Both the position numbers and the translations under genes were made by a program. The notes below the pieces were generated by a model, which worked only from the letters and a program-made list of their open reading frames with translations, did not search any database and was not told the origin of the DNA. A DNA stretch of 64,000 bases from Paraspadella gotoi (lineage: Eukaryota > Animalia > Chaetognatha): the NCBI GenBank assembly GCA_051294375.1, contig CM119271.1, positions 16,652,470-16,716,469 on the forward strand, given 5' to 3'. Positions 25,701 through 27,319 of this stretch are shown here, piece after piece; positions within the stretch are counted from its first letter, which is position 1; each line of letters opens with the position of its first letter.

Positions 25701-27319
25701 GTATAATCCAAGAATCAATTAATCAGTTCAATCCAAAAAACAATTAACAGTTCAATCCAAAAATCAATTAATCAGTTCAATCCAAGAATCAATTAATCAG
25801 TTTCAATCCAAGAATCAATTAATCAGTTCAATCTAAGAATCAATTAATCAGTTCAATCCAAGAATCAATTAATCAGTTCAATCCAAAGAATCAATTAATC
25901 AGTTCAATCCAAAAATTTAACAAGTTCAATCCAAAATCAATTAATCAGTTCAATCCAAGAATCAATTAATCAGTTCAATCCAAGAATCAATTAATCAGTT
26001 CAATCCAAGAATCAATTAATCAGTTCAATCCAAGAATCAATTAATCAGTTCAATCCAAAAATCAATTAATCAGTTTAAATCCAAAAAACAATTAACAGTT
26101 CAATCAAAAATCAATTAATCAGTTTTAATCCAAGAATCAATTAATCAGTTCAATCTAAGAATCAATTAATCAGTTCAATCCAAGAATCAATTAATCAGTT
26201 TTCAATCCAAGAATCAAATTAATCAGTCTTTACCTTTCTTGTGCAGCACGAATTCATGGAAATCGATCTCATTCACGATCGTCAATTTCGTGTCTCTCTA
26301 CTCGATCCCGTCTGCACTTGGAATCCGCGCCTCTGGTTCAAAGTCTTCTACAACATCTTGGCGGCGCCATGGACCGTTGGCGCCGCGGCGGCGCGGATGG
26401 CGGGGTCGAAGAAGTCGGGTCTGTACGCGGCGCCAATGGCCCTTTCTCTCTTACTCTTCATTGCGATGCAGATCTGCAATACGGCGCTCTTCGGGTTGTG
26501 GGCTCTTGGCTGGATTTGCTATCTCGGTTTTGTCGGTAAGGGGTAGACGAGTTGTTTTTTTTATTGAAAAGTATATTTATAAATGACGAAGTTTTCAATT
26601 AGTAAAAAGGGCTAAGTCCTCAGCTATCACCGTGCTTAATAAGATTATTTTTTGGGTTCCCCAAGGCTATACATATCATTCACCCAGCTGCCTATAAATT
26701 TGTTATGCTTGAAAATTTCTCAAAAATTACTAGTAATAATTATAGTATGTTATAAACAAAAGTTTAGTTTAAGAACTAATTTTTAAAAACTTTTCAAAAA
26801 ATTATAACATTCTTTAGTTTAGTTAGTTTTATGGTGTATAAGAATCCATCAATGGTTCACAGCAATTCTATCCCGGTGACCACAGTACGTATGTACGTGT
26901 ACGTGTATACTGTGTAGTAAGGCGTAATGAAAGTTGCCGATTAAAATTTAAATAGTTGATCATGAACATTGAAAAATAAATCGCCTTTAACAAGATCCGA
27001 AGATAAAAGATTTCTGATTTATGAAGGATTTAGTCATTAATTCATTATTACCTCACCCTTTTCTCCCCCCCCCCTTCTAACAGCCATCGTGACCAGTTTT
27101 CGCGCAGAGGCTCGTCGACGCCTTCAAATCAGGGGCAACCCGTTGGAGGATCTCTTTTCTTCTCTTTTCTTCTATCCAGGAGTCGCCGTGCAGTTGGAAG
27201 AAGCGTCCAAAGATGTCGCGGATTCCGTGGAGCCTTCGCCAACACCCTCGGCGGAGATGTTGCCCGTGAAGAGCGCGGATCGGCTGCTGGAGTCGGACCG
27301 GCCTTTCGATCACGTTTAA
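13740..27319 (+). CDS. BCCT-family (BetT/BetP/OpuD-like) betaine/choline/carnitine transporter, copy 1; 16 exons, 860 aa
   Basis: Manual splicing with GT-AG junctions and consistent phases. Exons: 13740-13802, 14395-14519, 14930-15032, 15151-15262, 15339-15505, 16718-16864, 16927-17079, 17175-17363, 17827-18001, 18087-18194, 18264-18505, 22939-23054, 23896-24091, 24383-24544, 26247-26535, 27084-27319 (2583 nt, one open frame to TAA). BCCT motifs: [97 protein letters not shown]. Exon 1 is the least certain. Confidence 0.93.
15848..16380 (+). mobile_element. MITE with degenerate telomere-like core
   Basis: ATATTTTCTGAAAGCACCCCATTT...AAATGGGGAACTTTTGGAAAATAT. Confidence 0.55.
17415..17630 (+). 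mobile_element. Solo LTR of the tRNA-containing TRIM (intron 8 of copy 1)
   Basis: Matches the 28644 LTR. The 72-nt tRNA-like cassette at 17432-17503 has a perfect acceptor stem GCGGCCA/TGGCCGC and B-box GGTTCAAGCCC. Confidence 0.8.
24790..25028 (+). repeat. Unclassified dispersed repeat
   Basis: Near-identical to 49730-49948; partial copies at 24600-24720 and 36180-36230, inverted at 45185-45300 and 48430-48520. Confidence 0.7.
25258..26226. repeat. 25-bp minisatellite (AATCCAAGAATCAATTAATCAGTTC), ~38 units, intron 14 of copy 1
   Basis: Tandem units seen directly. Confidence 0.95.

Follow-up and report, generated by a model that had tools for sequence, protein, structure and literature searches.

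The window, by which we mean the whole stretch of 64,000 nucleotides from Paraspadella gotoi that was analysed, is intron-rich eukaryotic DNA and contains two tandem BCCT genes, both on the forward strand. Paralogue 1 (14395-27319) has an open frame of 839 aa over the 15 coding exons found, and paralogue 2 (36888-53232) likewise has 15 coding exons, with intron phases matching those of copy 1; a start exon was found for neither copy within the window. The BCCT domain of copy 1 ends in the TM11-TM12 exon (24383-24544, forward strand), which corresponds to positions 433-482 of the 485 in the Pfam BCCT model, and the final 174 of the 839 residues follow TM12. This tail is encoded by two further exons of the same strand, here called PLAC8 exons in anticipation of their assignment below. 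The first (26247-26535) is bounded by AG/GT splice sites, lies in frame after the 24383-24544 exon and contains a linker, an F..LLD lead-in, a Pro-bearing amphipathic helix (26361-26372), the predicted TM13 (26421-26477) and most of TM14. It is followed by a phase-1 GT-AG intron (26536-27083), which interrupts the domain at a position equivalent to that in copy 2, and by the second half of the domain (27084-27199), which carries the R-x3-R, I-x-G, E-D, Y-P and Q anchors and matches PF04749 positions 64-98 (E 0.024). A poorly conserved C-terminal tail (27200-27319; dN/dS near 0.9) leads to the TAA stop codon. In copy 2 the first PLAC8 exon (51567-51852) has the intron phases of copy 1, and the second (52976-53232, forward strand, TGA) includes the tail and matches PF04749 positions 64-97 (E 0.0069). 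An earlier sequence-only reading of this DNA had numbered the two tail exons 15-16; they are exons 14-15 of the 15 coding exons found here, from which the start exon is missing.

That reading had also noticed about 130 conserved residues after TM12 in both paralogues, and these form an in-frame domain of ~135 residues under purifying selection. The PLAC8 domains of the two paralogues are 64% identical over 135 codons (dN 0.27, dS 1.35, dN/dS about 0.2), with a dN near that of the TM11-12 exon (0.20), and the motifs quoted for the tail were found in the PLAC8 exons of both. The 38 aligned codons beyond the domain drift (dN 1.07, dS 1.24 in the same paralogue comparison). On a profile built without window rows, the spliced tails of the window score 156 and 161 bits, while none of 1000 shuffled sequences exceeded 7.9. 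Splice sites, frame and homologues together indicate that the PLAC8 exons are spliced onto the carrier, and this splicing is backed by homologues that encode carrier and tail in a single ORF, on contigs of 2.5-3 kb as well as in single-ORF genes on longer contigs.

Several other features of the locus deserve mention. Exons 7-8 of copy 2 (46532-47381) differ from copy 1 by four single-base indels, two of them losses and two of them gains, most of which lie in short base runs; overall the reading frame is regained, but part of the region is shifted, which reflects either an assembly error or a pseudogene. Exon 7 (17175-17363 vs 46532-46719) is 89% identical between the paralogues, with ~100 bases nearly identical, compared with 55-81% for the other exons, and gene conversion or assembly mixing are possible causes. 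Intron 5 of copy 2 (window position 41887) begins with GC and its counterpart in copy 1 with GT. A 25-bp tandem array (25289-26225) takes up a large part of the intron that precedes the first PLAC8 exon of copy 1, and further arrays have units of 21 bp (39556-40205) and 12 bp (11339-11764). A dispersed 141-base repeat family, SINE-like in size, occurs at 17490, 28718, 29117 and 50549, and a frame at 31064-31321 may, judged by its motif, encode the final part of a Penelope-type GIY-YIG endonuclease.

The carrier core is well recognisable. Two single window exons reach 44 and 55 bits in the Pfam BCCT family (PF02028, cut-off 27), and homologues 244-535 bits. A structure model of a homologue has the 12-TM APC-type fold and matches TmaT, BetP and BetT with E down to 2e-25 (TM-score by target length 0.87-0.89 for TmaT and 0.81-0.89 for BetP); the BetP-G153D choline entry is among the matching structures. 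The G-x-G-x-G motif of TM3 reads GVGVG in copy 1 and GVSVG in copy 2 (central Gly replaced by Ser, 41485-41651). Asp in place of the third Gly of this motif marks choline/proton carriers; both copies have Gly there. The Trp box of TM8, aligned with BetP, is WW..W in copy 2 and FW..W in copy 1 (17827-18001), and the paralogues may differ in substrate preference, as judged from these residues. The definition of the G-x-G-x-G motif is taken from PMC7240134. The core would import glycine betaine or DMSP together with Na+. Between TM9 and TM10 lies an insert of ~120 aa (exons within 18264-24091 in copy 1 and 48591-50193 in copy 2, forward strand), which in each copy contains 6 Cys as well as 2-4 N-glycosylation sequons and is likely an extracellular disulfide-bonded loop.

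The sequence-only reading had assigned the C-terminal tail to the PLAC8 family, and our data bear this out: we regard the identity of the tail as a PLAC8 domain fused to a BCCT carrier as very likely. The assignment rests on homologues, because the Pfam scans of the window itself were of single exons. In those scans the last exons of the two copies matched PF04749 and no other family, reaching 16 and 17.7 bits (cut-off 34.4), and the first PLAC8 exon of either copy gave no PLAC8 match; a word-index search with the first PLAC8 exon likewise gave no match, and the ESM Atlas no usable one. Among the best 120 of 528 relatives found with a core exon, precomputed PF04749 stands beside PF02028 in 44. 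PLAC8 was matched by 22 of 24 tail rows (best E 3.8e-14), any other family by at most 2 of the 24, and 17 of 18 chosen full-length homologues match PLAC8 at E<=0.01, with five of the 18 above 34.4 bits and 13 below; the brown-algal homologue gave no PLAC8 match at E 0.01 in this Pfam scan of 18 proteins. Several full-length homologues span positions 1-100 of the 101 in the PF04749 profile. When the ESM Atlas was searched with a tail fragment and BCCT clusters were excluded, 30 of 30 matches were PLAC8 clusters (best 0.93, 208 shared features). The structure models were made from a homologue (P0049), not from the window protein, and the top match of its domain model in BFVD, weak at E 0.39, is ORF31 of cyprinid herpesvirus 2 (probability 0.99, TM 0.48/0.58, 14% identity), which has been annotated as PLAC8-like (PMC11259805; for CyHV-3, PMC5288646). 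Against solved structures, the best sequence match of the domain was cytochrome b (E 0.088), Foldseek of the domain model against the PDB gave none at E<=0.001 and the best Z of VIA-align was 4.8. It could be argued that a hydrophobic tail merely happens to fit the short Pfam PLAC8 model by convergence, given that most homologue scores lie below the curated cut-off and that the viral PLAC8 model shares 14% identity with the domain. We consider this most improbable in view of the best E of 3.8e-14, the near absence of other families among the 24 rows and the concurrence of HMM, language-model features and fold. The C-terminal domain of BetT, which the earlier reading had named as a competing assignment, is not a better match: the tail is modelled as all-helical with a predicted membrane hairpin, and there was no structural match to BetT. 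An unnamed viral protein of 163 residues (BFVD C7U041) also matches the domain model (probability 1.00, TM 0.56/0.52) and may, on the basis of the models, be an unrecognised PLAC8-fold protein.

The tail differs from textbook PLAC8 domains in its cysteines. We aligned 118 non-redundant tails (285 matches, of which 210 were near full length, thinned at 70% identity) and found Cys in at most 15 of the 118 at any alignment column, while R (115), R (116), G (116), D (118), Y (110), P (108) and Q (116) are nearly invariant. The claimed loss of cysteines with retention of the non-Cys anchors R, R, G, D, P and Q is therefore borne out beyond the two paralogues. Of PLAC8 motif 1 (CL/CCxxxxCPC) the Pro alone is kept (115 of 118), preceded by Cys in 10 and followed by Cys in 1 of these 115; of motif 2 (QxxRELK) the Q is kept in 116 of 118, and RELK is unconserved (both motifs as defined in PMC12794220). 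Judged from this alignment, the tail is a PLAC8-derived domain that fails both motifs. The cysteines of mammalian PLAC8 are predicted palmitoylation sites (PMC9170153), and their loss would be expected of a domain anchored by fusion to a carrier: once the 12-TM carrier and the domain's own hairpin held it in the membrane, the cysteines would have become dispensable.

Across the 118 sequences the tail contains two hydrophobic segments of 19-20 aa (mean hydropathy 2.0 and 1.6), which are almost uncharged, are separated by a short acidic loop and have about 3 K/R on each flank. Since the C-terminus of BCCTs is cytosolic (PMC11323884), these segments are predicted to form a TM13-14 hairpin with both ends in the cytosol, which would bring the carrier to 14 TM helices in all and place the invariant R-x3-R/G/D/YP/Q core at the inner face of the membrane. 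This predicted topology is opposite to that of plant FW2.2/FWL PLAC8 domains, for which a location in the outer leaflet, with the ends facing the apoplast, has been reported (PMC12794220). The AlphaFold model of the domain of P0049 is all-helical with a pLDDT of 92. In the full-length model of the homologue pLDDT is about 80-96 over the domain, 129 of 860 residues fall below 50, and the pTM of 0.73 exceeds the expectation for the core alone (~two thirds of the chain); the placement of the domain relative to the core is therefore probably confident, and a fixed position of the domain against the carrier core is predicted from the model. The invariant D and R residues might form the lining of a site, and plant PLAC8 proteins have been assigned roles in metal homeostasis and Ca2+ (PMC12794220), so that one might think of a tail that has a transport or metal-binding activity of its own, such as has been proposed for plant PCR proteins, and that couples this activity to the uptake of osmolytes. 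However, the tail lacks the Cys motifs by which metal-resistance members are defined, and its hairpin is almost uncharged; we see very little prospect for this explanation.

The survey of eukaryotic BCCTs suggested by the earlier reading shows that the tail is common to all tail-length homologues examined and is not peculiar to this animal. Among the best 120 of 528 homologues, it is present in all 66 that reach TM12 with at least 60 residues thereafter; of the other 54, 37 end sooner, most of them showing the first residues of the tail, and 17 stop before TM12. A search of 1.84 billion representatives with the tail gave 792 matches at E<=0.001, and among the 150 of these that were listed, every one of the 47 that have 40 or more residues upstream of the tail shows BCCT sequence there. 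The remaining 103 of the 150 listed, with fewer than 40 upstream residues, look like fragments, as do 11 short tail matches. No stand-alone protein of the Cys-poor PLAC8 subtype was found. Named carriers of the fusion are Acropora palmata, Tigriopus californicus, Clytia, Hydractinia, Discosporangium and Mucochytrium, and the groups represented comprise cnidarians including corals, a copepod, a brown alga (Discosporangium) and a thraustochytrid (Mucochytrium). In metagenomes the tail lies inside the BCCT ORF at 13 of 79 loci, 2 of which are on compact contigs with eukaryote-like neighbours. Three eukaryote-like metagenome fragments, two designated L092 and L103 (frameshifted) and one L091 (truncated), gave no tail match and were left off the trees. 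One BCCT-PLAC8 gene (L087, 537-2885) adjoins an AMP-binding enzyme on a gene-dense contig of 37% GC, which could come from a giant virus or from a picoalga, in a genome region of low GC. No viral BCCT relatives were found.

Among prokaryotes, the tail is present at none of the 80 best BCCT loci (of ~13,000 estimated), which either stop early or run into a BetT-type tail or another domain, and the tail profile found it in none of 401 and none of 301 sampled genomes, in searches run without a positive control. Matches of the tail profile in four of five genomes were due to TM11-12 columns in the alignment used (A6); one weak row (E 5e-4) in those five genomes extends beyond these columns. Among the BCCTs examined, the tail is restricted to the eukaryote type. 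In a quick tree of the core only, which used 40 of the 80 prokaryotic loci, a branch with support 99 splits 29 tail-bearing rows from 40 others, and in a second core-only tree, with 9 of the 66 tail-less metagenome loci, 24 tail-bearing rows are split from 23 with support 100. These trees are unrooted, and the searches were seeded with tail-bearing sequences, so that tail-less eukaryotic BCCTs may be missed. The topology fits one fusion, which would have occurred at the base of the eukaryotic BCCT group.

What the tail does for the carrier can have several explanations. In our opinion the best is that a Cys-poor PLAC8 tail acts on a BCCT carrier as an accessory unit that tunes its activity; we give this explanation an even chance, and the regulatory role of the tail no more and no less. 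The tail would be covalently attached, dock on the carrier and occupy the position that the osmoregulatory tails have in BetP and BetT. An accessory regulatory unit is favoured because its position matches these tails and deletion of the BetT tail relieves autoinhibition (PMC11323884), because the tail is under purifying selection across distant eukaryotes, and because plant MCA pairs a C-terminal PLAC8 domain with hypo-osmotic Ca2+ signalling (PMC11663713). On the other hand, copepod BCCTs are reported to respond to salinity at the transcript level (PMC12069450), and control of activity by the tail may thus not be needed. The main rival is a module for biogenesis, serving folding, ER export or targeting to membrane microdomains and leaving transport kinetics unchanged. 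The tail occurs only in eukaryote-type carriers, which also gained the predicted glycosylated Cys-rich loop, and roles in trafficking and at membrane microdomains have been ascribed to stand-alone PLAC8 proteins (PMC9170153, PMC12794220). The residues lost, however, are those cysteines that are predicted to be palmitoylated in PLAC8, and the position of the tail is that of the bacterial regulatory tails; a biogenesis role therefore appears possible but somewhat doubtful. The tail might also change or stabilise the oligomer, for example by inserting into the lipid clefts of the trimer or by bringing about a dimer. The picoalgal carrier PaDT is predicted to be dimeric by its authors (peer-review file of PMC13547399), and in BetT the tail makes its own trimer contacts and large clefts lie between the protomers (PMC11323884). 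We consider such a role decidedly unlikely, as bacterial BCCTs trimerise without tails (PMC11323884).

The regulatory reading can be extended to a wider one, which we put forward as speculative and rather unlikely. PLAC8 would be a general accessory module of eukaryotic transport proteins that senses membrane tension or osmotic state, one ancient fusion would have replaced the osmosensor of a bacteria-derived BCCT, and the fused carrier would then have dispersed across marine algae, protists and animals. On this view, the core that is conserved here without Cys would be what is truly functional in every PLAC8 protein, human PLAC8 and tomato FW2.2 among them.

BCCT-PLAC8 is apparently an undescribed but widespread domain architecture, which joins two known families. 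The sequence-only reading knew of no description of it; a full-text search for BCCT together with PLAC8, in literature from which subscription journals were mostly absent, returned no paper naming the fusion, and the portions searched of PMC7240134, PMC13547399 and PMC12069450 mention neither PLAC8 nor a C-terminal domain. The pair is, however, already visible in the precomputed Pfam matches (44 of the 120 homologues), and, given that several coral proteins score above the Pfam cut-off, public domain databases probably list it. What the PLAC8 domain does at the molecular level is still an open question (PMC6488628, PMC12794220). Its conserved fusion to a transporter, the activity of which is simple to read out, puts this question within reach of experiment: PaDT imports DMSP when expressed in E. 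coli MKH13 (PMC13547399), so that deletions of the tail and point mutants of its R and D residues can be assayed there. The fused carrier also lends itself well to cryo-EM, which could yield a first PLAC8 structure. The architecture bears on the question how corals, copepods and phytoplankton control the uptake of betaine and DMSP, and, as a shared derived character, can help to trace how eukaryotic BCCTs originated.

Eukaryotic BCCTs have already been described in corals and Symbiodiniaceae (PMC7240134). The coral BCCTs (Ngugi 2020, PMC7240134), PaDT (Simo 2026, PMC13547399) and the copepod BCCTs (PMC12069450) belong to the same family and apparently to the same group as the window carriers, whose nearest named relative on the core trees is a Tigriopus protein; the window carriers contain the G-x-G-x-G motif, with the change in copy 2 noted above, and aromatic residues in TM8. 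The authors' model of PaDT has 14 TM helices (peer-review file of PMC13547399), which would fit 12 helices plus a hairpin like that of the tail. With BetP, BetT and TmaT the window carriers share the 12-TM core, and BetP and BetT likewise carry an extra domain directly after TM12. The nature of this domain is different: the tail of BetP from C. glutamicum is one cytosolic helix of 49 residues and that of BetT from P. syringae a soluble alpha/beta frataxin-like domain (both PMC11323884), whereas the tail described here is modelled as all-helical with a predicted membrane hairpin and matches neither of them. From the PLAC8/DUF614 family (PF04749: onzin, cornifelin, plant PCR/FW2.2/FWL and fungal FCR1), which homologues match over the whole length of the Pfam model, the BCCT tails have kept the Pro of motif 1, R-x3-R, G, D and Q, and they differ in a longer predicted transmembrane hairpin and in their fusion to a secondary transporter. 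MCA1 and MCA2 of land plants are similar in being membrane proteins that react to hypo-osmotic stress and have a PLAC8 domain at the C-terminus (PMC11663713), but their N-terminal part (a single TM, an EF-hand-like region and a coiled coil) is unrelated, and the flux concerned is that of Ca2+, not of an osmolyte.
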